Shown here piece after piece: positions 31,415 to 40,958 of a DNA stretch of 64,000 bases. The notes under the pieces were generated by a model. It did no database searches and was not told the origin of the DNA. It saw nothing but the letters and a program-made list of their open reading frames with translations. This DNA is from an uncultured bacterium (lineage in GTDB: Bacteria; Bipolaricaulota; Bipolaricaulia; UBA7950; UBA9294), in assembly GCA_903857865.1 (NCBI GenBank), contig CAIOGO010000020.1, forward strand, positions 43,064 through 107,063. Reading direction: 5' to 3'. A program made the translations under genes and the position numbers. How positions within the stretch are numbered: position 1 is the stretch's first letter; the number at the start of each line of letters is the position of its first letter.

Positions 31415-33259
31415 GTGGAAGCGATCCGGCAGGCGAAAGCCTGGCCGGGCGGCGCAGTGTGGATCTGGCAGTGGAGAATGGAACAGAAAATCAAGATGGA
31501 GGACGCTTTCTCTGAAAGCGATGTGAAGATGTACAGTCGCGGAGACACGATCTCCGGGACTGTCGTCCAAGTAGGCGACAGCGAGATCCTTGTCGACATC
31601 GGCTACAAGTCGGAAGGAATCCTGCCGGTGTCGGAGCTGTCCCCCTTCCGAGCGGGCGGGAAGATCGATGCGGGCGAGCAGATCGAGGTGCTCGTCACGT
31701 ACATCGATGAGGAGAAGGGGACCGTCTACGCGTCCGAGAAGCAGGCCGAATACGAGAAGCGCATCGACGGCCTCGAGGCCGCGTACCAAGAGGGCCACGT
31801 TATCGAGGGCGAGATTACAGGCGAGGTCAAGGGGGCCGGGTACCACGTAAATCTCGATGGCATCCGCGCCTTTCTGCCAGGCTCGCACCTCGGCAGCGAC
31901 CTGCCGAGCAGCATTGAGGAGCTGCGCGGGAAGAGAATTGCGTTCCGGATTCTCGAGCTCTCTCGCCGTGACAAGAACCTGGTCGTCTCGCACAAGGAGT
32001 ACATCAAGGACCGCGAGCGCACGAAGCGCAAGGCGCTCTTCGACTCGCTCCAGCCGGATCAGGAGATCGAGGGCGTCGTCCGCAGCGTCGTCGACTTCGG
32101 TCTGTTCGTCGATATCGGTGGTTTCGAAGGGCTCGTCCATCGATCGGAGATTGCGTGGAAGGACCTCCCCGTCCCTCCGTCCGAGTATAGAGTCGGCACG
32201 CACACCAAGGTGAAGGTCATCGACTTCGATCGTGAGAAGGGCAAGGTCTCCCTCTCGATTAAGCGTCTGCGCCCGAATCCGTGGAGCGGCATCTCGGAGC
32301 GCTACGCGACGGGCTCGCAGGTCGAAGGGAAGGTCGTCAGCGTCACCGACTTCGGCGCGTTCGTCGAGCTCGAACAAGACATCGAAGGGCTCGTCCACAT
32401 CTCAGAACTTTCGTGGGGACACCCGGAGAATCCGAAGGACGTCGTCAAAGAGGGCGACATGGTGCCCGTCATCATCCTCAGCTGTGATGAGGAGGCGCGC
32501 CGCATCAGCCTGTCGTTGCGGCGAACGCAGCGCGACCCGTGGGAGAGCGTCGAGACGAAGTACGCTCGCGGCCAGGTTGTCGCGGGAACCGTCACGAAGA
32601 TCACGGACTTTGGGGCGTTCGTGAAGCTCGAAGAGGGTGTCGAGGGACTGGTCCACGTCTCGGAGATCGACTGGGGGCATGTTAACCACCCGCGCGACGT
32701 CCTGAAGGAAGGCGAGAGCGTCCAAGTCAAGATCCTCAGCGCGGACCCGCGCGAGCGTCGCATCTCGCTCAGCATCCGCGAGCTCAAGGATAACCCGTGG
32801 CGGCGATTCATCGACAAGTTCTCGATCGATGATGTTGTGGACGGCGAGATCACCGAGATCAAAGAGTTCGGCGCCTTCATGAAGATCACCGACGAAGTCG
32901 ACGGGCTGATTCACGTCTCCGAGATCTCGAACGAGCGCATCGCCACCCCCGCCGACGTCCTCGCCGTGGGTCAGAAGATCCAAGCGAAGATCATCGGCAT
33001 CAACGAGGAGAAGCACCAGGTTCGCCTCAGCATGCGCAACCTGTTCGGCCCACCGGAGGTTCCCGCTGTCCCGACCGACGACGAAGACCGGGACCGCGCC
33101 GGACGAGGCAAGCGACGCCGCGCGACGCCCGCAGGAAAGGAACGGCCGGCGCGAGCGAGAGAGAAGGTTGATCGACGCTTCCTCGACGAGGGCGGCCACG
33201 AGTCGCTCAGCATGCGCGATCTCTTGGGCAAGACTGGGTTTGACGACGAGGCTCAATAG
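31415..33259 (+). CDS. rpsA: 30S ribosomal protein S1
   Basis: Six tandem S1 domains (repeated G.V..ItdfGaFV..e.gveGLvH.SEi); start could be GTG 31415, ATG 31478 or ATG 31496. Confidence 0.9.
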   Translation: MEAIRQAKAWPGGAVWIWQWRMEQKIKMEDAFSESDVKMYSRGDTISGTVVQVGDSEILVDIGYKSEGILPVSELSPFRAGGKIDAGEQIEVLVTYIDEEKGTVYASEKQAEYEKRIDGLEAAYQEGHVIEGEITGEVKGAGYHVNLDGIRAFLPGSHLGSDLPSSIEELRGKRIAFRILELSRRDKNLVVSHKEYIKDRERTKRKALFDSLQPDQEIEGVVRSVVDFGLFVDIGGFEGLVHRSEIAWKDLPVPPSEYRVGTHTKVKVIDFDREKGKVSLSIKRLRPNPWSGISERYATGSQVEGKVVSVTDFGAFVELEQDIEGLVHISELSWGHPENPKDVVKEGDMVPVIILSCDEEARRISLSLRRTQRDPWESVETKYARGQVVAGTVTKITDFGAFVKLEEGVEGLVHVSEIDWGHVNHPRDVLKEGESVQVKILSADPRERRISLSIRELKDNPWRRFIDKFSIDDVVDGEITEIKEFGAFMKITDEVDGLIHVSEISNERIATPADVLAVGQKIQAKIIGINEEKHQVRLSMRNLFGPPEVPAVPTDDEDRDRAGRGKRRRATPAGKERPARAREKVDRRFLDEGGHESLSMRDLLGKTGFDDEAQ

Positions 33260-33295
33260 GAAGACGAGAGCAGGTTGCAAGGAGGCTTGTAGAAG

Positions 33296-33607
33296 ATGAA
33301 CAAGGGCGAATTCATCGATCGGCTGGCGGAGAAGTCGAACCTTACGAAAAAGGAAGCGCGGAAGCTGCTTGACAACGTGCTTGATCTGGTTCAGGACTCC
33401 CTCCTGACTGGCGACGAAGTCAAGCTGGTGGGGTTCGGGAAGTTCGCCGTGCGCGCACGCAAGGCGAGCAGCCGCATCAATCCGCAGACCAAGCGGCCGA
33501 TTCAGGTGGAAGCGAAGGTCGTCCCGCTGTTCAAGCCGGGGAAGGAGCTGAAGCGCCGAATCGAGAAGGCGCTCAAGGCGGCGCCGAAGGGCGTCACAAG
33601 AAAGTAG
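33296..33607 (+). CDS. hup: HU family DNA-binding protein with Lys-rich C-terminal tail
   Basis: MNKGEFIDRLAEKSNLTKKEA...GFGKF...R.A.SRINPQT; RBS AAGGAGG before ATG. Confidence 0.9.
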   Translation: MNKGEFIDRLAEKSNLTKKEARKLLDNVLDLVQDSLLTGDEVKLVGFGKFAVRARKASSRINPQTKRPIQVEAKVVPLFKPGKELKRRIEKALKAAPKGVTRK

Positions 33608-33713
33608 CTTTCCTCGTTGGTCGGATTCTCATGGGGTGCCGGGCCGTGCGCCTGGCATCCCATTCTTCTCGCCGATCCGCGACGCGCCGCACCCGGGCCT
33701 ATGGAAGGGGTGC

Positions 33714-34346
33714 TTACGCGTTCGATTCTACCGAGAGAACGCGCAGACGCTCGGCCTCGACGATCGCGCTGAGCTCCCGAACGGCGTTCTCGATCGTGTC
33801 GTTGATCACGAGGTAGTCGAAGATCGGCAGGGCCTCGATCTCGCGCGACGCCACCCGAAGGCGCTCGGCGATCGCCGCCTCGCTTTCCGACCCGCGGGCG
33901 CGCAGTCGCTCGCCCAGCTGATCGAGGGAGGGTGGGGCGAAGAAGACGAACACGAGAACGGTCCCCGGCACCCCAACGCGGCGGAGCTCGCAGGCACCTT
34001 GGGTGTCGATGTTCAGGACGATATCGAACCCCTTGGCCGCAAGCCGCGTGATCTCGCATTCCGACGTGCCGTACTGGTCGCCGAGGTAGATCACGTGCTC
34101 GATGAACGCGCCCGCGGCGACCATTCGGTCGAAGTCGACGGTAGAGACGAAGTGGTAGTCGACCCCGTCTTCTTCGCCGGGGCGCGGCGGCCGCGTCGTG
34201 TGCGATACGGAGTAGACGAGGTCCGGGGTGTCGGTGAGAAGACGGTCGATCGCCGTGTTCTTCCCGGCTCCGGAAGGCCCGGAGACGACAAGCGCGAGAC
34301 CACTCCCCGTCCCTCTGCGGCGGGCGGCGAGCCCGCTACTCGACAT
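33714..34346 (-). CDS. gmk: Guanylate kinase
   Basis: P-loop GPSGAGK, TTRPPRPGEEDGVDYHF. Confidence 0.9.
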   Translation of the reverse strand: MSSSGLAARRRGTGSGLALVVSGPSGAGKNTAIDRLLTDTPDLVYSVSHTTRPPRPGEEDGVDYHFVSTVDFDRMVAAGAFIEHVIYLGDQYGTSECEITRLAAKGFDIVLNIDTQGACELRRVGVPGTVLVFVFFAPPSLDQLGERLRARGSESEAAIAERLRVASREIEALPIFDYLVINDTIENAVRELSAIVEAERLRVLSVESNA

Positions 34347-35199
34347 TCTGCACCTGCTCTTTCAGCTGTTCGATCGCAACCTTCATGTCGACCGTGAGGC
34401 CCGCAACCTCCCCATCTCGCACCTTCGAGCCGAGCGTGTTCACCTCGCGCAAGAGTTCCTGGGCGAGGAAGTCGAGCTCCTTGCCGACGGGGCCGCCACG
34501 CGAGAGGAGCTGGCGGACCCGAGCGACGTGGCCGCGCAGTCGGACGAGCTCCTCCTGGACGTCAAATCGATCCACGCACAGCACAATCTCCGACTCGATG
34601 CGGTCGGGGTCGACACGCAGACCCAGCTCGTCGATGCGCGCGTGGAGCTTGTCGCGCAGATCGTCCTGGATTCCCGGGAGACGGGCCTCGGCTTGCGTGC
34701 CTCGCGCCTCAAGCACATCGAGCAGGCGAGCGATCTCTTCCCCGAGCAAGTGCCCCTCTCGGCTGCGCGTCGCATCTAGGGCTCGGATGGCTTCTCCCAG
34801 AGCCGCCTCGACGGCGGGCCAGAGAGCCTCCTCGGCCTCTTGCGGCGCCTGCAGTCCGCCGGCGCGAATGAGGTCAGCCAACGTGAGGGGCTCGCGAAGC
34901 CCAAACTCCGCGCGCGCGCCTTCGAGCGCCCGCACGACGCGACGTGCCGCGTCGCGATCGAAGCCCAAGGCCGCCCCCGTCCCTACCTCTTCGCTGATCG
35001 TGAGCCAGACGCCGACGTCTCCACGGTGAAGCGCCGCGCGCACCTTCTCCTCAATCTGGGACTGCAGCCAGGGGCGGTCGGACAGCGACCGAAGGCGGAT
35101 CGAAAGGTAGCGGTGATTCACGGAGCGAAGCGTCGCCTCGACGCGCCAGCCGCCCACCGCCGCGGCTCCGCGGCCAAACCCCGTCATGCTGCGAATCAT
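34336..35199 (-). CDS. yicC: YicC family stress-induced protein
   Basis: N-terminus MIRSMTGFGRG, NHRYL; RBS AAGGAGAA before ATG at 35199; track ORF extended to 35355. Confidence 0.85.
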   Translation of the reverse strand: MIRSMTGFGRGAAAVGGWRVEATLRSVNHRYLSIRLRSLSDRPWLQSQIEEKVRAALHRGDVGVWLTISEEVGTGAALGFDRDAARRVVRALEGARAEFGLREPLTLADLIRAGGLQAPQEAEEALWPAVEAALGEAIRALDATRSREGHLLGEEIARLLDVLEARGTQAEARLPGIQDDLRDKLHARIDELGLRVDPDRIESEIVLCVDRFDVQEELVRLRGHVARVRQLLSRGGPVGKELDFLAQELLREVNTLGSKVRDGEVAGLTVDMKVAIEQLKEQVQNVE

Positions 35200-36026
35200 G
35201 AGTTCTCCTTGGCGAACAGGACCGCCGCGTACCCGACGACCGCCGACCGGTCGCCGGTGATGTCGCCCGATGTCGCGTAGTCGACGAGCGACGACCTCCC
35301 CAAGCCGAGAGTCCGGGCGAGCAGGAGAAGGACAGTGATCGCCCCCGCGCCACAAATGGAGAGCCCGCGCTCGATCGTGTGCCGATAGAAGCCCTGAGCG
35401 TCTCCAGCCAGGATAAGGTCGAGCGCCGATCGGTCGAGGGCACGTGCCGCCGCGTCCGGCTCGTAGTGCGTGAAATCACTGGACGCCACAACCCATACCC
35501 GGTCAGAGCCGAGCGCCTCCCCGAGCCGCCTCGCTCCTTCGTTCAGCGCTGACCACGGTGCGAGCTGGACGCACACCGGCACGACGGGTGTCGGCTCCGG
35601 GAAAAGGACCTGCAGGAAGGGCAGGACGACCTCCATGGAGTGCTCGCGGCGGAAGGCGTCGGGGCTGCGCGACACCCCGAGCGACACCAGACGCTCGATC
35701 GTCCCATCGTCCAGGGGAACGTCCCCGAGCGGGGTCCGCCACGCTGCGTCGCCGGGCACCACGAGTGCGTCGCCCAGCCGACTGTGGCTCGCTCCCAGGA
35801 TAATGACCGCTTCGGGCCGCCCGAACGCGGTAGCGGCGCGCAACCCGGCGCCCGCGACCCGTCCCGAGTACTCATAGCCGGCGTGCGGCACGATGAGCCC
35901 GACAGAGGATGGAGCGCGTGCAGGCGTCGGTTCCCCCAGAAGTCCCTCCACGAGCGCACGTAGGCGCGCTCGCTCCCCGGGGTAGAACGACCCCGCGACC
36001 ACCGGCTGCCGCACACCACTTCCCAT
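35196..36026 (-). CDS. MEMO1-family protein (AmmeMemoRadiSam system protein B-like)
   Basis: VVAGSFYPG, IVPHAGYEYSG, SSDFTHY; ATGA overlap with yicC; track ORF continues to 36449 across a tRNA and is truncated here. Confidence 0.75.
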   Translation of the reverse strand: MGSGVRQPVVAGSFYPGERARLRALVEGLLGEPTPARAPSSVGLIVPHAGYEYSGRVAGAGLRAATAFGRPEAVIILGASHSRLGDALVVPGDAAWRTPLGDVPLDDGTIERLVSLGVSRSPDAFRREHSMEVVLPFLQVLFPEPTPVVPVCVQLAPWSALNEGARRLGEALGSDRVWVVASSDFTHYEPDAAARALDRSALDLILAGDAQGFYRHTIERGLSICGAGAITVLLLLARTLGLGRSSLVDYATSGDITGDRSAVVGYAAVLFAKENS

Positions 36027-36110
36027 GCCGCCATTGTACCCACGCTCGTCCGCCCAGCCCAAGCGGGTCTTGACGAGAGCGCGCACCCTCGCGTACCATG
36101 CCGTCTCGTC

Positions 36111-36181
36111 TGGGAGATCGTTCAATGGCAGGACAGCAGGCTCTGGCCCTGTTAATGGGGGTTCGAATCCTCCTCTCCCAA
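36111..36181 (+). tRNA. tRNA-Gln (anticodon CUG)
   Basis: Manual fold: 7-bp acceptor TGGGAGA/TCTCCCA, D-arm GTTC-AATGGCA-GGAC, anticodon arm GCAGG-CTCTGGC-CCTGT with CTG centred after U33, T-arm GGGGG-TTCGAAT-CCTCC; no encoded CCA. Confidence 0.85.
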
Positions 36182-36226
36182 AAGGGAACCCTGAGGAGAT
36201 CCTCCTTCTCAGGGTTCCCTTTTGGG
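36182..36226 (+). terminator. Intrinsic-terminator-like hairpin directly after tRNA-Gln
   Basis: Perfect 15-bp inverted repeat AAAGGGAACCCTGAG / CTCAGGGTTCCCTTT with 12-nt loop followed by TTTTGGG. Confidence 0.5.
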
Positions 36227-36434
36227 TGCGGCGGTGAGAAGTCCCACCCCGAGGAAGGAGTTCGCGTCGGCGAACTCCCCAGTGACTGGAGAACCGAAGA
36301 GCCACTCCAGTCGCCATCCTCCTCTCCCGGTTCTGGGCGGTGAGAACCCCCAAGAGAAAGAAGGAGTTTGCGGCCACAGACTCCCGAGCAACTGGAGAGC
36401 CGAAGAACCGCTCCCGTTGCCATCCTCCTCTCCC
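36224..36434 (+). repeat. Two tandem ~105-nt units, each ending in a copy of the tRNA-Gln 3' end (ATCCTCCTCTCCC)
   Basis: ATCCTCCTCTCCC at 36167-36179 (in tRNA), 36316-36328 and 36422-36434; units also share GCGGTGAGAA, GAAGGAGTT.GCG and ACTGGAGA.CCGAAGA.CC blocks. Confidence 0.6.
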
Positions 36435-36660
36435 AACAGGTACGTGCAACGTCTGTTCCTGTCCGCGTTGACGTGCTCGCTGTTCTGATTGGCATATCTC
36501 AGACCTTCGGAGTCACTTCGCGGATTCGATCTCCTGTCCTTTCCTGCAGAAGAGTGCTGCTCGTGGATTCTGCGCCCAGCCCACTCCATCATTGGCAGGA
36601 GGACTGACTCACTGGATCGCCGGGCAAGCGCGCACACCGGGAATGCGAGGAGGGGACCCC

Positions 36661-37119
36661 ATGAAGTGCTTGACAATCAACCCCGAAGCCATCGACATCG
36701 ATGCCCTGGTAGAACGTGGAACATCACTCCACGGCCATTGCGGCCCATTCCTCGTGCTCGGCATCCGTATGGGTCTGCAGGCGCTCACTTTGCTTCATCA
36801 TCCAGGCTACTTCGGCCTCCGTGCCGAATCCGAGGCCGGTTCAACGCCACCACTCTCATGCCTCAATGACGGCATACAGGTCGGCTCTGGGTGCACGATG
36901 GGCAAAGGGAATCTCAGCATCGTCGGCAACAGCCGACCCCGCGTTCGCTTTGTTGCTGACGACGGCGCAAGTATCAGTATCGAGATCCGAGCCGATGTTC
37001 TTCGCGCTGTGCAACGTGGGGAGATTGACGAGCTCGGGACGCTATTGCGTCGCCGTCCCGCTGATGAGTTGTTCGCGTGGACAAGTCCGACCTCACCCAG
37101 TACAGCGTCATCATCGTGA
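36661..37119 (+). CDS. FmdE/FwdE-family protein
   Basis: HGHCGPFLVLGIRMG matches the FwdE-family HGHxCP...G.RM core; RBS GAGGAGGGG before ATG at 36661. Confidence 0.65.
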   Translation: MKCLTINPEAIDIDALVERGTSLHGHCGPFLVLGIRMGLQALTLLHHPGYFGLRAESEAGSTPPLSCLNDGIQVGSGCTMGKGNLSIVGNSRPRVRFVADDGASISIEIRADVLRAVQRGEIDELGTLLRRRPADELFAWTSPTSPSTASSS

Positions 37120-37381
37120 CTCGCATCCTGGAACCCGAGCGGGAGCCAGAGTCCTAAGATCGTCCTCCACTCCCAACTGGCAGCTACACGTTCGTACTCT
37201 TGCGTAGGTGCATGCATTTTCCCGGTCCGTGAGGCGCCACCTCGAATGCTCCGCTCGCCAATTGTGTTGCGGAAGTCAGTTTGTTCCTGGTCTAGCAGTG
37301 ACTGTTACACCCCGGTCATGAGGCGGGGTCCACTTCGAGGATTATGAACGTATGTGTATAATGCTCTCCTGCGGGGCGATC

Positions 37382-37843
37382 ATGGCGAGACCACAGTGTT
37401 GTCGAAGAATCGCAGCGATGCCTATTGCAGAAGCGTTTGGGCCGGTTCCCGCTTCGGCTTGCGCGCCTGATCAAGTCGTCATCACCCTCGACGAGTTCGA
37501 GGCGGTGCGCCTCGCCGATCTCGAGGAGCTCTACCAGGAACGCGCCGCCGAGAGGATGGGCGTTTCACGGCCCACGTTCAGCCGGATCATCGAGTCTGCA
37601 CACCGGAGGATTGCCGAGGCCCTGGTCAGTGGCAAGAGTCTGAGGATTGAGGGCGGTTCCGTTCGTGTACACCCGACGGGGCCATCTCGCTGCCGGCAGT
37701 GTGGACGGGAGTCGGCCGGTACGTATGAGTGCCCGCATTGCCGTGGAGACTGCAGCGTGAAGACCACGCATAAGACAGGGTCTGCTGCCTCGCAAACGAA
37801 CAAACGCAGACGCAGCCGGACCGAATCTGACCGCATTACGTAG
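37382..37843 (+). CDS. DUF134 (UPF0251) predicted DNA-binding protein with C-terminal Cys cluster
   Basis: ITLDEFEAVRLADLEELYQERAAERMGVSRPTFSRIIESAHRRIAEALVSG typical of DUF134; C-terminal CRQCG...CPHC; start among three Met candidates. Confidence 0.65.
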   Translation: MARPQCCRRIAAMPIAEAFGPVPASACAPDQVVITLDEFEAVRLADLEELYQERAAERMGVSRPTFSRIIESAHRRIAEALVSGKSLRIEGGSVRVHPTGPSRCRQCGRESAGTYECPHCRGDCSVKTTHKTGSAASQTNKRRRSRTESDRIT

Positions 37844-37881
37844 GCTGGGTACCTGGAGCACCCGGCAAAGGAGACGAGAAG

Positions 37882-38268
37882 ATGAACCTCTGCATTCCAG
37901 TGACCGAGGGCAAACGGCTTCAAAGCCCAGTGAGTGGGCACTTCGGGTCGGCGCCGTTCTTCGCGATCGTCGACCGAGACACAGGAGCCTGTCGCATTGT
38001 CCCGAATAGAGACGCCCAGCACAGCCATGGCGCATGCCAGCCACTCGCGAGTCTCGCCGGCGAAGGGGTAGACGCTGTCGTTGTTGGCGGCATAGGTGCG
38101 GGCGCGCTGAGCAAGCTGCAAGCAGCAGGCGTCAGCGTCTTCCTGTCAGAGGAGCCGACGGTCGAGGCCGTCCTAGCGGCTCTCAAGGCCGGAACACTGC
38201 AGCTGGCAACGCCCGCCACTTCCTGTGCGCACCGCCAGCACGGGCACTGTCCTGAGGAAGCCGCGTGA
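37882..38268 (+). CDS. NifB/NifX-like (dinitrogenase FeMo-cofactor-binding fold) family protein
   Basis: Small protein with GHFGSAPFFAIVD...VDAVVVGGIGAGA pattern typical of the family; RBS AAAGGAGA before ATG. Confidence 0.65.
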   Translation: MNLCIPVTEGKRLQSPVSGHFGSAPFFAIVDRDTGACRIVPNRDAQHSHGACQPLASLAGEGVDAVVVGGIGAGALSKLQAAGVSVFLSEEPTVEAVLAALKAGTLQLATPATSCAHRQHGHCPEEAA

Positions 38269-38321
38269 TGGAGTCGGGAGGAACGCCCGAGGGTAGATTC
38301 ATCGGGTGGTAGCCTTCGCCT

Positions 38322-38786
38322 GTGCAGCCACCCTGGAGGACAGCGTTGGACACGATCATCCTGTATGCGATAGCTGTCGCCTTGCTAGCGGTTTCTGCGG
38401 CCAGGGATCGCGAGAAAGCGAAACGAGCCATCCTGAAGGGCGCGAAGGCCTTCGAGAGCATACTGCCGCAGCTTGTGACGGTTCTGCTTGCCGTTGCTGC
38501 CGTCCTCGCGGTCTTCAACCCGGAGATAGTCTCGCGGGTGATCGGCGAACGATCGGGGTTCTTCGGCATCCTTGCTGCTTCCGTCGTCGGGGGGATTGCC
38601 CTCATCCCCGGGTTCGGTGCCTTCCCCGCTGCGGCGGAACTCCTGAGGAGCGGCGCGGGGACGATGCAGATCGCGGCTTTCGTGTCGTCCTTGATGATGG
38701 TTGGCGTTGTGACCCTGCCCATGGAGATCAGGTACTTCGGTCGGCGTGCGGCTATCGCGCGGAACTTGCTCGCTTGCGATTCATGA
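38322..38786 (+). CDS. Small integral membrane protein (permease-like), unknown function
   Basis: Three to four predicted TM stretches; start uncertain. Confidence 0.5.
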   Translation: MQPPWRTALDTIILYAIAVALLAVSAARDREKAKRAILKGAKAFESILPQLVTVLLAVAAVLAVFNPEIVSRVIGERSGFFGILAASVVGGIALIPGFGAFPAAAELLRSGAGTMQIAAFVSSLMMVGVVTLPMEIRYFGRRAAIARNLLACDS

Positions 38787-38937
38787 ATCAGCATCCTCGA
38801 CCCCTCCGCAGCGAATACCCCGCTAGGGTAATCCTCTGCCAGACTTCGGGTCCTTGAGGTTGGTCGGACATCTGATCTAGTCGCACCCGATACACTGAGG
38901 CGGTCGGATTCTGCTATCCTCCCCTCAAGGAGGGAGC

Positions 38938-39555
38938 GTGAAGAGGGCGGCGCTGCTCGCGGTCGAGTTGATTCTTTGTTCGATTCCGCTTCTTGCTGGC
39001 CTTCCCAGCCTTCCTGTTCATGCTGACTCGTCAGACGTAGTCAATCCACTTGTCGCAGGTTCTGCCTATCGGGGTGCACCTGAGGTCCGATACGCTGCGA
39101 TCACGGCTGAGAAGGCGCAGGACCTCGCCACGATTGTCGGCAACATCGCTCCAGTTTCTCAGGAGACAAGAGTGCGCAGGAATATCGCCCATGCATCATT
39201 CTGCCTTCCTCAGAATGTGCTTGGGACTCTCTACTACGGGTTGCTCCAGCTCACTGGGAATGTTGTGGGCACTGCAGATATGAACGAGATGAAGATCATC
39301 GTGACCAGAACCCCCTTCGGCGTTTCATTGGGGAGGTACATCTTCGTCAGCACGTCCCTGCAGACTGAGAACACTGTAAGGCATGAGTATGGCCATACTA
39401 TGCAGGGCTACAAGCATGGCCCCTTCTACCTCCCGTTTGAGGGTTTGGTATCCCTTGTTCAGGCGGCCATCTCGCTGATCTCGCCCTCTTTCGCGAATCG
39501 CTACTTCGACAGGTGGCCTGAGAACGAGGCGAATGAACTCAGCGGGGTCAAATGA
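38938..39555 (+). CDS. Secreted hypothetical protein (signal peptide, possible HxxxH metal site)
   Basis: N-terminal signal-like LAVELILCSIPLLAGLPSLPVHA; visibly lower G+C than core genes; RBS AAGGAGGGAG before GTG. Confidence 0.5.
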   Translation: MKRAALLAVELILCSIPLLAGLPSLPVHADSSDVVNPLVAGSAYRGAPEVRYAAITAEKAQDLATIVGNIAPVSQETRVRRNIAHASFCLPQNVLGTLYYGLLQLTGNVVGTADMNEMKIIVTRTPFGVSLGRYIFVSTSLQTENTVRHEYGHTMQGYKHGPFYLPFEGLVSLVQAAISLISPSFANRYFDRWPENEANELSGVK

Positions 39556-39848
39556 GAGGCTGGCCTGTCCTCCAACCTCCGGTTCAACTCCAGCCTAGTA
39601 CCTCCCGTGGTAACTTCAGGCTCCACGCTGTCACCCGGTAGTCAGGATGAAGATTCCGGTTACGCCCATGCAGGCTCCTCGGCAGCGGCGCTTCTTCTCC
39701 CCAGGGGCGTTTCATGGTCCGCGGCCAGTCCCTCAAGCTCTTCGGCTTCTCTGCAGACGGTGCAGCGCTTCTCCGATGGCCTCGACTGCCACCGTAGCCT
39801 CCCTCCTCCGGAACGCAAGCCAAGGTGAGAATACCCTCGCTCTGCGGC

Positions 39849-40958
39849 TCAGCCTTCGGGGGATAGGTCCGTTCTAGGGTCGGTCTTCGCGAGGGCGGCC
39901 TCGAGTTCGCCGAGGAGCTCGGCGATGAGGTCCTTGACCGAGACGATCTTGTCGATCCGGTGGGCGTTCTGCCCACAGAAGACGAGGCCGTGGTCCACGT
40001 CTCCCCGACAGGCGTTCAGAAGGGCCTGGGCGATGCAGAACTTGGCCTCCGCGACCTTGCAGGCGGTCAGGCAATGGTACGGGCAATGGACCTGCGGAGG
40101 GTCCGCCTTCTCGAGGTCTACTAGAAACTTGTTCCGGATGGCGCGCCCAGGGAGACCGACGGGGCTCTTGATGATGACAATGTCCTCTTCCCTGGCGTCG
40201 AGATAGGTCTGCTTAAAGGCTTTGGCGGCATCACACTCCCAGGTGCAGACGAATCTCGTGGCCATCTGGACTCCGGATGCGCCAAGCCGCAGCATGCGGG
40301 CGATGTCGTGCCCGTCGTAGATGCCCCCAGCGGCGATGACCGGGATCGCCTTACCGTGGCGCTCTTCGTAAGGCTTCACGGTCTCTAGCACCTGGGGCAC
40401 GAGGGTCTCGAGTGCGAAGTCCTCCACATGCTGGAGTTCATCGCGGGAGAATCCGAGGTGTCCTCCTGCGAGGGGGCCCTCGAGGATGAAAGCGTCGGCG
40501 GTCCTCTCGTAGCGCTTCGCCCAAGCGCGAAGGATCAGGTCTGCGGCGCGAGCTGAGCTGACGATGGGAACGAGGTTCACCGAGGGGTCCGGGACCATCT
40601 CGGGCAGCCGCATCGGAAGACCTGCGCCAAAGACAATCATCTTGATGCCTTCTTCGACGGCCGTCTCCACAAGAACCTCGACGTTCCTGACTGCGCCCAT
40701 GAAGTTGACCGCGAGGATCCCCTGGGTCATGGATCGTGCCTTGCGGATCTCCGCCCGCAAGGCCTCGCAGGAGACGCGCTCGTAGTCCCGCGCGCCCCGC
40801 TCGAGATCGCCGAGCCCGATGCTGGAGATCGTGCCGATGCCGCCTTCCTCAGCCACTGCCGCAGCGAGGGACGCCATCGAGATCCTGACCCCCATCCCCC
40901 CTTGGACGATGGGGATATCGGCAATGAGGTCTCCGATACGAAGCTTTGGGATGCTCAT
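39849..40958 (-). CDS. Enoyl-[ACP] reductase FabK-like / nitronate monooxygenase family flavoprotein
   Basis: IVQGGMG N-terminal motif, AAGGI.DG FMN-binding region; RBS AAGGAAGAGAGG before ATG at 40958; ATGA overlap with upstream KAS gene. Confidence 0.8.
   Translation of the reverse strand: MSIPKLRIGDLIADIPIVQGGMGVRISMASLAAAVAEEGGIGTISSIGLGDLERGARDYERVSCEALRAEIRKARSMTQGILAVNFMGAVRNVEVLVETAVEEGIKMIVFGAGLPMRLPEMVPDPSVNLVPIVSSARAADLILRAWAKRYERTADAFILEGPLAGGHLGFSRDELQHVEDFALETLVPQVLETVKPYEERHGKAIPVIAAGGIYDGHDIARMLRLGASGVQMATRFVCTWECDAAKAFKQTYLDAREEDIVIIKSPVGLPGRAIRNKFLVDLEKADPPQVHCPYHCLTACKVAEAKFCIAQALLNACRGDVDHGLVFCGQNAHRIDKIVSVKDLIAELLGELEAALAKTDPRTDLSPEG

Follow-up and report, generated by a model that had tools for sequence, protein, structure and literature searches.

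We analysed a 64-kb stretch of DNA (the window; contig CAIOGO010000020.1 of an uncultured bacterium of the Bipolaricaulota), in which four adjacent genes for an FmdE-like protein, a DUF134 protein, a NifX-like protein and a small permease-like protein lie downstream of a tRNA-Gln gene. On balance we lean towards the view that these genes form a composite of two metal-related units within a probably acquired segment, which starts where the synteny with other Bipolaricaulota ends. The first unit (37334-38786) would be a self-regulated cassette, in which a dimer of the DUF134 protein binds a 20-bp palindrome over its own promoter and represses the operon. The co-transcribed NifX-like protein would act as the ligand-binding half of the regulator, and a thiophilic metal ion or metal-sulfur species would relieve the repression. 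In sister cassettes the regulator appears to control one of two effectors, a split two-gene permease of the ArsP_1 type or a zinc-ribbon FmdE. Here this output arm seems to be broken, with the first permease half alone remaining and its function presumably lost. The second unit (36661-37119) would be an orphan core-only FmdE, that is a Zn/Ni-site protein, with an upstream region of its own.

All coordinates are positions in the window; L numbers designate the compared loci or contigs and P numbers the representatives of protein families. Four open reading frames (ORFs) are present on the plus strand between 36661 and 38786, at the coordinates given in the initial annotation of this DNA apart from the start of the DUF134 gene. 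The parts of the two units are:

36661-37119, plus strand: core-only FmdE-like protein of 152 amino acids (aa), Pfam family FmdE.
37334-37362, plus strand: putative promoter of the DUF134 operon, with the -35 box TTCGAG (37334-37339), a 17-nucleotide (nt) spacer and the -10 box TATAAT (37357-37362).
37342-37361, no strand assigned: putative operator, an imperfect 20-bp palindrome TTATGAACGTATGTGTATAA, which fills the spacer and overlaps the -10 box.
37382-37843, plus strand: DUF134/UPF0251 protein of 153 aa, Pfam family DUF134 (PF02001).
37882-38268, plus strand: stand-alone NifX-like protein of 128 aa, Pfam family Nitro_FeMo-Co (PF02579), COG1433.
38346-38786, plus strand: permA, the cut-short first half of a split ArsP_1-type permease, with an ArsP_1 match below the cut-off.

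Domain searches, which the initial annotation had named as a check, supported its family assignments: FmdE, DUF134 and Nitro_FeMo-Co were all found above the Pfam cut-offs, the permease being the one that stayed below the threshold of its family.

The DUF134 protein was recognised by its Pfam model with E=8.9e-23 and 81.1 bits (cut-off 27). The NCBIfam equivalog PRK04217 scored 64.6 bits, below its curated cut-off of 115, which places the protein outside the equivalog. The gene starts with the ATG at 37382, as in all homologues, and not with the upstream ATG at 37352, which falls inside the operator. The protein consists of an N-terminal RPxCCRR motif, a helix-turn-helix (HTH) similar to region 4 of sigma-70 (residues ~31-90) and a tail with the pattern C104-x2-C107-x9-C117-x2-C120. 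It contains all columns that are invariant in an alignment of 50 sequences, and C6 and C104 are at least 90% conserved. In an AlphaFold2 (AF2) model made with 50 homologues the core of residues 31-90 reached a predicted local distance difference test (pLDDT) above 90. A Foldseek search with this modelled core retrieved region 4 of SigD, SigR and SigE and the DNA-binding domain of DeoR at a root-mean-square deviation of 0.5-0.8 Å; no solved structure related to DUF134 was found in the comparison with solved structures.

The extra C-terminal Cys cluster that had been pointed out in this protein is indeed present (CRQC-x9-CPHC). It is a common trait of the subfamily rather than an unusual one, since among the 120 closest DUF134 clusters 52 have at least two CxxC motifs in the tail, as do 78 of the 147 representatives taken at 50% identity from a family of ~5,200 clusters at this level. 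No Pfam zinc-ribbon model matched the zinc-ribbon-like tail above threshold, its likeness to generic zinc ribbons being sub-threshold.

When the upstream regions of 13 close relatives were aligned, unalignable sequence was followed by a near-invariant block directly before the start codon. The family consensus of the palindrome is TTATGRRCATATGYYCATAA, and perfect palindromes are found in L029, L038 and L049. We searched 35 non-redundant DUF134 loci, extending down to 39% protein identity. In 25 of them the palindrome (≤3 mismatches) lies no more than 130 nt ahead of DUF134; elsewhere in 1.62 Mb it was found once. The copy in the window is unique there, with 0 expected by chance; no second DUF134 operator exists upstream of FmdE or elsewhere in the window at ≤3 mismatches. 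In distant loci the palindrome is flanked by a consensus TTGACA on one side and a (C/T)ATAAT box on the other, with 17 nt of spacer, and the end of the palindrome forms the first five bases of the latter box. Two loci, L038 and L047, have neither a NifX-like nor an ArsR neighbour and have nevertheless kept the palindrome; its constant partner is therefore DUF134 itself. As the palindrome lies in promoter DNA which is not transcribed, a protein operator is favoured over an RNA hairpin.

Because a sigma-region-4-like HTH coincides with a conserved palindrome over its own promoter, the DUF134 protein is probably an autorepressor. From comparative genomics and the predicted fold we regard it as highly probable that a DUF134 dimer would bind the palindrome and repress the operon. 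The initial annotation had counted DUF134 among the cofactor-handling proteins; its DNA-binding fold and its own conserved operator point to a regulator instead. The literature searched holds no description of a palindromic operator over a DUF134 promoter, and no functional study of DUF134, UPF0251, COG1342, COG1433 or PF02001 was found in the open literature searched.

The second gene of the cassette encodes a protein with a clear Nitro_FeMo-Co domain (E=2.1e-24, 86.1 bits, cut-off 26.3). Its best solved relatives are TM1816, TM1290, MTH1175 and ORP (2wfb), with the PDB entries 1o13, 1t3v, 1rdu and 1eo1 matching at E=1e-12 to 1e-7, and it groups with uncharacterised COG1433 proteins, apart from NifX/NafY. 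NCBIfam searches with the ORFs gave sub-threshold similarity only (PRK04217, MrpORP, SO_0444). The protein carries the His/Cys motifs HSHGAC and, at the C-terminus, CAHRQHGHC, for which the clade conserves HxHGxC and CxHHxxHGxxC.

Gene-neighbourhood statistics, a further check proposed at the outset, showed an association of this protein with DUF134 beyond chance. A NifX-like gene is located directly downstream of DUF134 in 24 of the 31 non-redundant loci with enough downstream sequence and in none of 80 control loci, most of which are archaeal. Moreover, at least six natural DUF134::Nitro_FeMo-Co fusions exist (L039, P0264, P0291, P0342, P0357 and P0370), the last five of which are among the longest representatives of the DUF134 family. 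As the two proteins are adjacent in most loci and fused in several, the NifX-like protein is probably a co-sensor, i.e., the ligand-binding partner of DUF134. For the more specific proposal that it forms the ligand-binding half and that its ligand relieves the repression, we see even chances.

Which signal the cassette would respond to can be approached from its neighbours. Metal, metalloid and thiol functions dominate the neighbourhood of DUF134 loci, namely ArsR (near six loci), full-length ArsP_1, Thioredoxin_3, Acr3/SBF, ArsB and DsbD, and further ZIP, ferritin/rubrerythrin, P-type ATPase, AhpC and thioredoxins. In L023, L030 and L044, and also in L014, the DUF134-NifX pair is placed directly upstream of a cassette of ArsR, full-length ArsP_1 (with the motif TPFCSCS) and Thioredoxin_3. 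That the two recur together hints at a substrate or stress common to both. We infer a ligand-responsive switch whose ligand would be a thiophilic metal or metal-sulfur species, the identity of the signal being a tentative part of the proposal.

The same regulatory architecture might respond instead to an Fe-S cluster or to the thiol-redox status in the manner of IscR/NsrR, with the NifX-like protein as an ORP-like cluster carrier. The Cys residues of DUF134 and the NifX-like partner would then hold a cluster whose loss or oxidation switches the operon, and C6 and C104 would supply four Cys per dimer. Distant DUF134 clusters fit this alternative, as they contain multiple NifX-like proteins, two Mrp/ParA-ferredoxin ATPases, a radical SAM protein, an HdrB-like CCG protein, a disulfide oxidoreductase, Fur and TauE. 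So do the AhpC, rubrerythrin/ferritin, thioredoxin and DsbD neighbours, the weak similarity to MrpORP and the fact that ORP is a solved relative. In the clade of the window, however, the effector is either a permease or an FmdE with a Zn/Ni site, and ArsR-ArsP_1, ZIP and P-type ATPase are found as neighbours. In addition, the full Cys set is absent in about half of the DUF134 family, and the CxxC-x9-CxxC tail resembles a structural zinc ribbon. We therefore consider an Fe-S or redox signal unlikely.

The extent of the cassette could be narrowed down by comparison with its relatives, which carry it in unrelated contexts. The cassette core (37342-38778) comprises the operator, DUF134, the NifX-like gene and an effector. 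At the DNA level the window is 71-84% identical to 12 related loci, and 75-84% identical to 11 of these. In nine of these loci the DNA homology starts at 37342; in L016 (37335), L014 (37306) and L022 (37258) it starts 7-84 nt further upstream. On the other side the homology ends either at 38775-38778 or at 38246. Loci with the longer homology continue with the rest of a 160-aa permA followed by an overlapping 184-aa permB, whereas in loci with the shorter homology the permease is replaced by an FmdE of ~200-230 aa with a DksA/TraR-type zinc finger.

Both permease halves are present in six sister cassettes. PermA and permB match the same part of the ArsP_1 profile, which identifies them as a split two-repeat permease. 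The permA of the window scored 23.5 bits with ArsP_1 (PF03773; cut-off 32.3) over profile positions 14-116 of 294. It is 87% identical to residues 1-143 of the 160-aa permA of L005, diverges 10 nt ahead of the new stop codon and lacks the last transmembrane helix, and no counterpart of permB was found anywhere in the 64-kb window. To judge from these alignments permA has in all probability been truncated. What had been annotated as a small permease-like protein is thus a half-transporter cut before its last helix, and it is small because it is the cut-short first half of a split two-gene permease.

The single Cys of the window permA is situated in the non-homologous tail, and the vicinal Cys motif TPFCSCS is absent. 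A vicinal Cys pair in this motif is typical of the ArsP organoarsenical efflux permease, and the motif is present in the full-length ArsP_1 neighbour of L023. Some gene callers prefer an antisense ORF of 203 aa at the position of permA.

The FmdE-like protein of the second unit was assigned to its family (PF02663) with E=9e-17 and 61.8 bits (cut-off 22.9), the match covering profile positions 1-85 of 133 only; the nearest solved structure is PDB 2gvi (E=1e-6). Candidate metal ligands are H24, H26, C27 and C66 inside the motifs HGHCGP and SCLNDGIQVGSGCTMGKGN. Of the known metal site H24, H26 and C66 are conserved, while the third ligand of HxHxC is displaced by one residue. The protein belongs to a coherent short subfamily (107 clusters, median length 145 aa), in which 88 of the 107 members have HGHLGP and consequently no third ligand Cys.

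The initial annotation had remarked that the usual C-terminal zinc ribbon seems to be missing. This proved correct, as there is no Cys past residue 78 and none of the 107 members of the subfamily has two C-terminal CxxC motifs; the missing ribbon is at the same time an ordinary subfamily trait. Core-only FmdE proteins are already known: PDB 2glz of Desulfitobacterium hafniense binds Zn/Ni via His-x-His-x-Cys and a distal Cys, and most members of the FmdE family adjoin metal transporters (PMC2954224). NikR-ZnuA-FmdE-ZnuC-ZnuB operons with overlapping genes account for three of the six distinct contexts of the short subfamily. The closest homologues of the window gene are orphans, and the window contains no NikR-ZnuABC operon. 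The analysis also shows that genes annotated as FmdE in Bipolaricaulota stand for the core-only protein of NikR-ZnuABC metal-uptake operons and are no indication of formylmethanofuran dehydrogenase. The Bipolaricaulota FmdE protein P0226 could not be located on any contig.

The 262-bp gap between FmdE and DUF134 holds the promoter and the operator of DUF134. A conserved block, GTGGATTCTGCGCCCAGCCCACTCCATCATTGGCAGGAGG (36563-36603), is found 60-100 nt upstream of orphan short FmdE genes, also in L138, L139 and L011, with three independent loci in total, and may serve as a promoter or as a regulatory element other than the operator of DUF134. Since FmdE has no DUF134 operator and has an upstream block of its own, common to its orthologues, we treat it as a separate transcription unit. 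An FmdE gene lies within 6 kb of DUF134 in six of the 31 loci and in none of the 80 controls (Fisher p=3e-4). These cases represent about three independent events, which makes it plausible that FmdE proteins are functionally connected with the DUF134-NifX switch. Since FmdE genes are also part of other DUF134-NifX cassettes, the window FmdE may stand beside this one on account of a common function in metal handling.

The initial annotation had read the genes as one metal-cofactor module, that is a co-functional set which assembles, carries or inserts a cofactor of the Mo/W-pterin or iron-molybdenum cofactor (FeMo-co) type, serving an enzyme whose gene lies in another place. The connection with metal biology stands, and FmdE does recur in DUF134-NifX cassettes. 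Precursors of FeMo-co are reported to be carried by domains of the NifX/NafY type (PMC5715403, PMC13128457); 13 of 208 FmdE genes, all from methanogens, share a transcript with formylmethanofuran dehydrogenase (PMC2954224); and the short FmdE of L011 is placed upstream of a Mo enzyme of the xanthine dehydrogenase type. The idea of a single module does not hold, as FmdE lacks the operator, which occurs once in the window, and is separated from DUF134 by a gap bearing a promoter. A cofactor pathway is not encoded nearby either: no nif, molybdenum cofactor (Moco) biosynthesis, mod/tup or fmd/fwd genes, including those for the fmd/fwd catalytic subunits, occur within 10 kb on either side. Together with the DNA-binding fold and operator of DUF134, the grouping of the NifX-like protein away from NifX/NafY and the NikR-ZnuABC operons as the main context of the short FmdE subfamily, this makes a cofactor module quite improbable.

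For the two-unit reading that we prefer, the setting of the genes is relevant, and here the following feature serves as the left anchor of the variable segment:

36111-36181, plus strand: tRNA-Gln(CTG), detected by ARAGORN and by the Rfam tRNA model with 57 bits.

A genome scan with the Memo protein of the window identified metagenome-assembled genomes of Candidatus Bipolaricaulota as the nearest relatives (74, 69 and 68% identity). The gene order S1-HU-gmk-yicC-Memo-tRNA-Gln is kept across L058-L065 as far as the contigs reach; the tRNA-Gln was detected in L058-L064, and L062 and L065 are cut by contig ends. The tRNA-Gln gene is the last feature that is syntenic with the related Bipolaricaulota, and past it no gene content is held in common. 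In all four relatives with downstream sequence in which NifX and FmdE were searched for (L058, L060, L061 and L062) the segment is absent past the tRNA-Gln. Five of the eight related contigs terminate 0.2-1.4 kb past the tRNA-Gln; in the two long contigs, L061 and L062, unrelated large surface proteins and ABC permeases follow. The tRNA-Gln site is either a lineage-wide variable spot or an assembly break.

The composition of the segment differs as well. The GC content is 0.60 over 36-40 kb compared with 0.66 for the whole window, and GC3, the GC content at third codon positions, is 0.61-0.76 for the five genes at 36.6-39.6 kb compared with 0.76-0.85 for flanking genes and a window median of 0.80. 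The background distribution was taken from a GC3-guided gene call, which was used for this purpose only. The low GC3 of the true genes in the segment led this call to choose antisense ORFs there.

Finally, the cassette proteins are 73-87% identical to their counterparts in L005, whereas the HU protein of L005 is only 52% identical to that of the window; the HU proteins of the true relatives are 96-98% identical. The segment was thus confirmed to be tRNA-adjacent and compositionally atypical, and its horizontal acquisition is likely, though not proven.

If an attachment (att) site had been duplicated, the 3' end of the tRNA should recur as a direct repeat at the opposite border; no such repeat was found. 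Three 19-mers resembling the tRNA 3' end (36167, 36422 and 37162) were considered as att sites and rejected, because they are the 3' tails of a structured element of about 100 nt described below. In some assemblies a 417-aa ORF on the minus strand (35196-36449) is given as a gene; it over-extends the Memo-family gene across the tRNA-Gln. The Memo homologues support a protein of ~276-309 aa that ends short of the tRNA.

The whole segment could also be a decaying, functionless remnant of an old insertion, in which the regulator pair is merely still undegraded. The cut-short permA and the missing permB, the displaced third ligand of FmdE, the atypical codon composition and the weak -35 box and degenerate operator are what decay would produce. 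However, three of the proteins (DUF134, NifX-like and FmdE) have their full length and every residue that is invariant in their families, the left half of the operator and the -10 box match those of close relatives, permA is 87% identical in protein and 79-84% in DNA, and the same contig sequence was assembled from at least five separate metagenome samples. We consider general decay very unlikely.

In two metagenome copies of the contig, L002 and L004, few differences to window positions 32196-38602 were seen, and these are clustered T>G and A>C changes at invariant residues (e.g., L50, Q52 and E53 of DUF134). They are therefore most likely sequencing or assembly errors; an interpretation as population polymorphism was rejected and the differences were left unused.

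Hardly credible is the alternative that some other regulator, e.g., of the ArsR/SmtB type, uses the palindrome and that DUF134 has another role, for although the core of the palindrome (TGAACA-NN-TGTTCA in L029) may resemble the 12-2-12 operators of ArsR/SmtB, and ArsR genes occur near six loci, most of the palindrome-bearing DUF134 loci have no ArsR within 6 kb, DUF134 is the sole constant neighbour and the window has no ArsR gene within 10 kb on either side.

Several points weigh against the two-unit reading. We infer that DUF134 binds DNA, which way it regulates and what kind of ligand is involved, and the open literature searched contains no experiment on any DUF134 protein, with only two incidental mentions. 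The operator of the window is the most degenerate form of the palindrome, with seven of ten half-site positions symmetric, and its -35 box is poor; another regulator could bind the palindrome, given its ArsR/SmtB-like core and the ArsR genes near six loci. The Mrp/ParA-ferredoxin, radical SAM, Fur and HdrB-like genes of the distant clusters point to Fe-S or redox rather than to a free metal ion. A permB could exist beyond the 64 kb analysed here. As to acquisition, the HU protein used in the transfer argument could be a paralogue, and no integrase or transposase domain was found among the called genes of the segment.

Among known systems, the pairs of DUF134 (PF02001, COG1342) and COG1433 proteins represented by TM1290, TM1816, MTH1175 and MJ0327 belong to the same families in the same order as in the window, and these families have been described as functionally uncharacterised (PMC2954228). 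The window locus is a further member of these known yet uncharacterised families. In comparison with those pairs, the clade of the window adds the zinc-ribbon-like tail of DUF134 and the His/Cys motifs on the partner. Compared with the larger DUF134 clusters, the cassette is without Mrp/ParA-ferredoxin ATPases and has a permease or FmdE as third gene.

The similarity of permA to the profile of the ArsP_1 family, which includes ArsP (organoarsenical efflux) and SO_0444 (Cu/Zn efflux), is weak but specific and concerns the first repeat, and a full-length ArsP_1 with ArsR and Thioredoxin_3 adjoins sister cassettes. PermA differs from this family by its score below the cut-off, by the split into half-size genes in relatives, of which the window retains a cut-short half, and by the lack of TPFCSCS. 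With the core-only form of the FmdE/FwdE family (2glz) the window protein shares the alpha+beta core, a putative His-x-His...Cys metal site and the absence of a zinc finger. In its subfamily, in contrast, the third ligand Cys is replaced, and the window gene adjoins neither fmd/fwd genes nor a transporter.

The autorepressors of the ArsR/SmtB type offer a functional analogy only: they are small dimeric HTH proteins with a palindrome over their own promoter, Cys/His ligands and a downstream exporter or metal gene. DUF134 differs from them in its fold, which is sigma-region-4-like and not a winged helix, and in that the sensor is seemingly split off onto the NifX-like polypeptide. The ORP complex of Desulfovibrio is comparable in so far as it involves small NifX-like proteins outside nitrogen fixation, and ORP (2wfb) is a detectable structural relative. 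ORP operons are sigma-54-regulated and have no DUF134. Conversely, no ParA/Mrp/NBP35 gene exists within 10 kb on either side in the window, such genes being found in distant DUF134 clusters only.

Locally, the cassette is a partly decayed accessory element and of minor importance for the core biology of the organism. Anaerobic bacteria and archaea widely possess DUF134/UPF0251 and stand-alone NifX-like COG1433 proteins, which despite several solved structures are without an assigned function. The operator, its position in the promoter, the gene fusions and the catalogue of effectors lead to the specific hypothesis of a two-part repressor responsive to a metal or metal-sulfur species. We give a little less than even odds to the broader proposal that DUF134 and COG1433 constitute a widespread two-polypeptide sensor-repressor of anaerobes, with the palindrome TTATGRRCATATGYYCATAA, a sensing NifX-like domain and modular effectors. 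If this were true, two protein families that have been unexplained since the structural-genomics era would obtain a function and a DNA target. The NifX-like domain would then have been re-used as a ligand sensor rather than as a cofactor carrier, and permeases, FmdE metallochaperones and Fe-S trafficking ATPases would be the effectors.

Two further features were found on either side of the genes discussed so far:

36230-36331 and 36336-36436, plus strand: two tandem copies of a structured element of about 100 nt, following the tRNA-Gln and a terminator hairpin.
38938-39555, plus strand: a predicted secreted protein of 205 aa with a signal peptide, the metalloprotease-like motif HEYGH (HExxH) and a GC3 of 0.65.

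The 205-aa ORF is placed just past the cassette breakpoint in the same segment of low GC3. It gave no match in Pfam or NCBIfam and was found only within the population of the window itself.

A block of 44 nt after the stop codon of FmdE (37147-37190) is 95% identical to positions 552-595 of L014, which lie upstream of the cassette there. This block contains the tRNA-3'-end-like sequence GTCCTCCACTCCCAACTGG and may be left over from the repeat element or mark a border of the cassette.

An Rfam scan of the window and a permissive scan of 35900-39900 detected the tRNA only and no riboswitch or other RNA. The element of about 100 nt is context and stands outside the cassette. It occurs in one to four copies at the same place in related Bipolaricaulota, namely in L058 (785-1330), L060 (833-1135), L061 (9545-9798) and L062 (8391-8490), and none were found elsewhere. 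The element folds as two hairpins, with 97% of the cells paired and six pairs showing compensatory changes, and its covariation score was reached by none of 500 shuffles. A few G-U pairs speak for the strand of the tRNA. Behind the hairpins comes a conserved CU-rich tail, GCCAUCCUCCUCUCCC, which looks similar to an anti-Shine-Dalgarno sequence. The element is a candidate for a new small RNA family.

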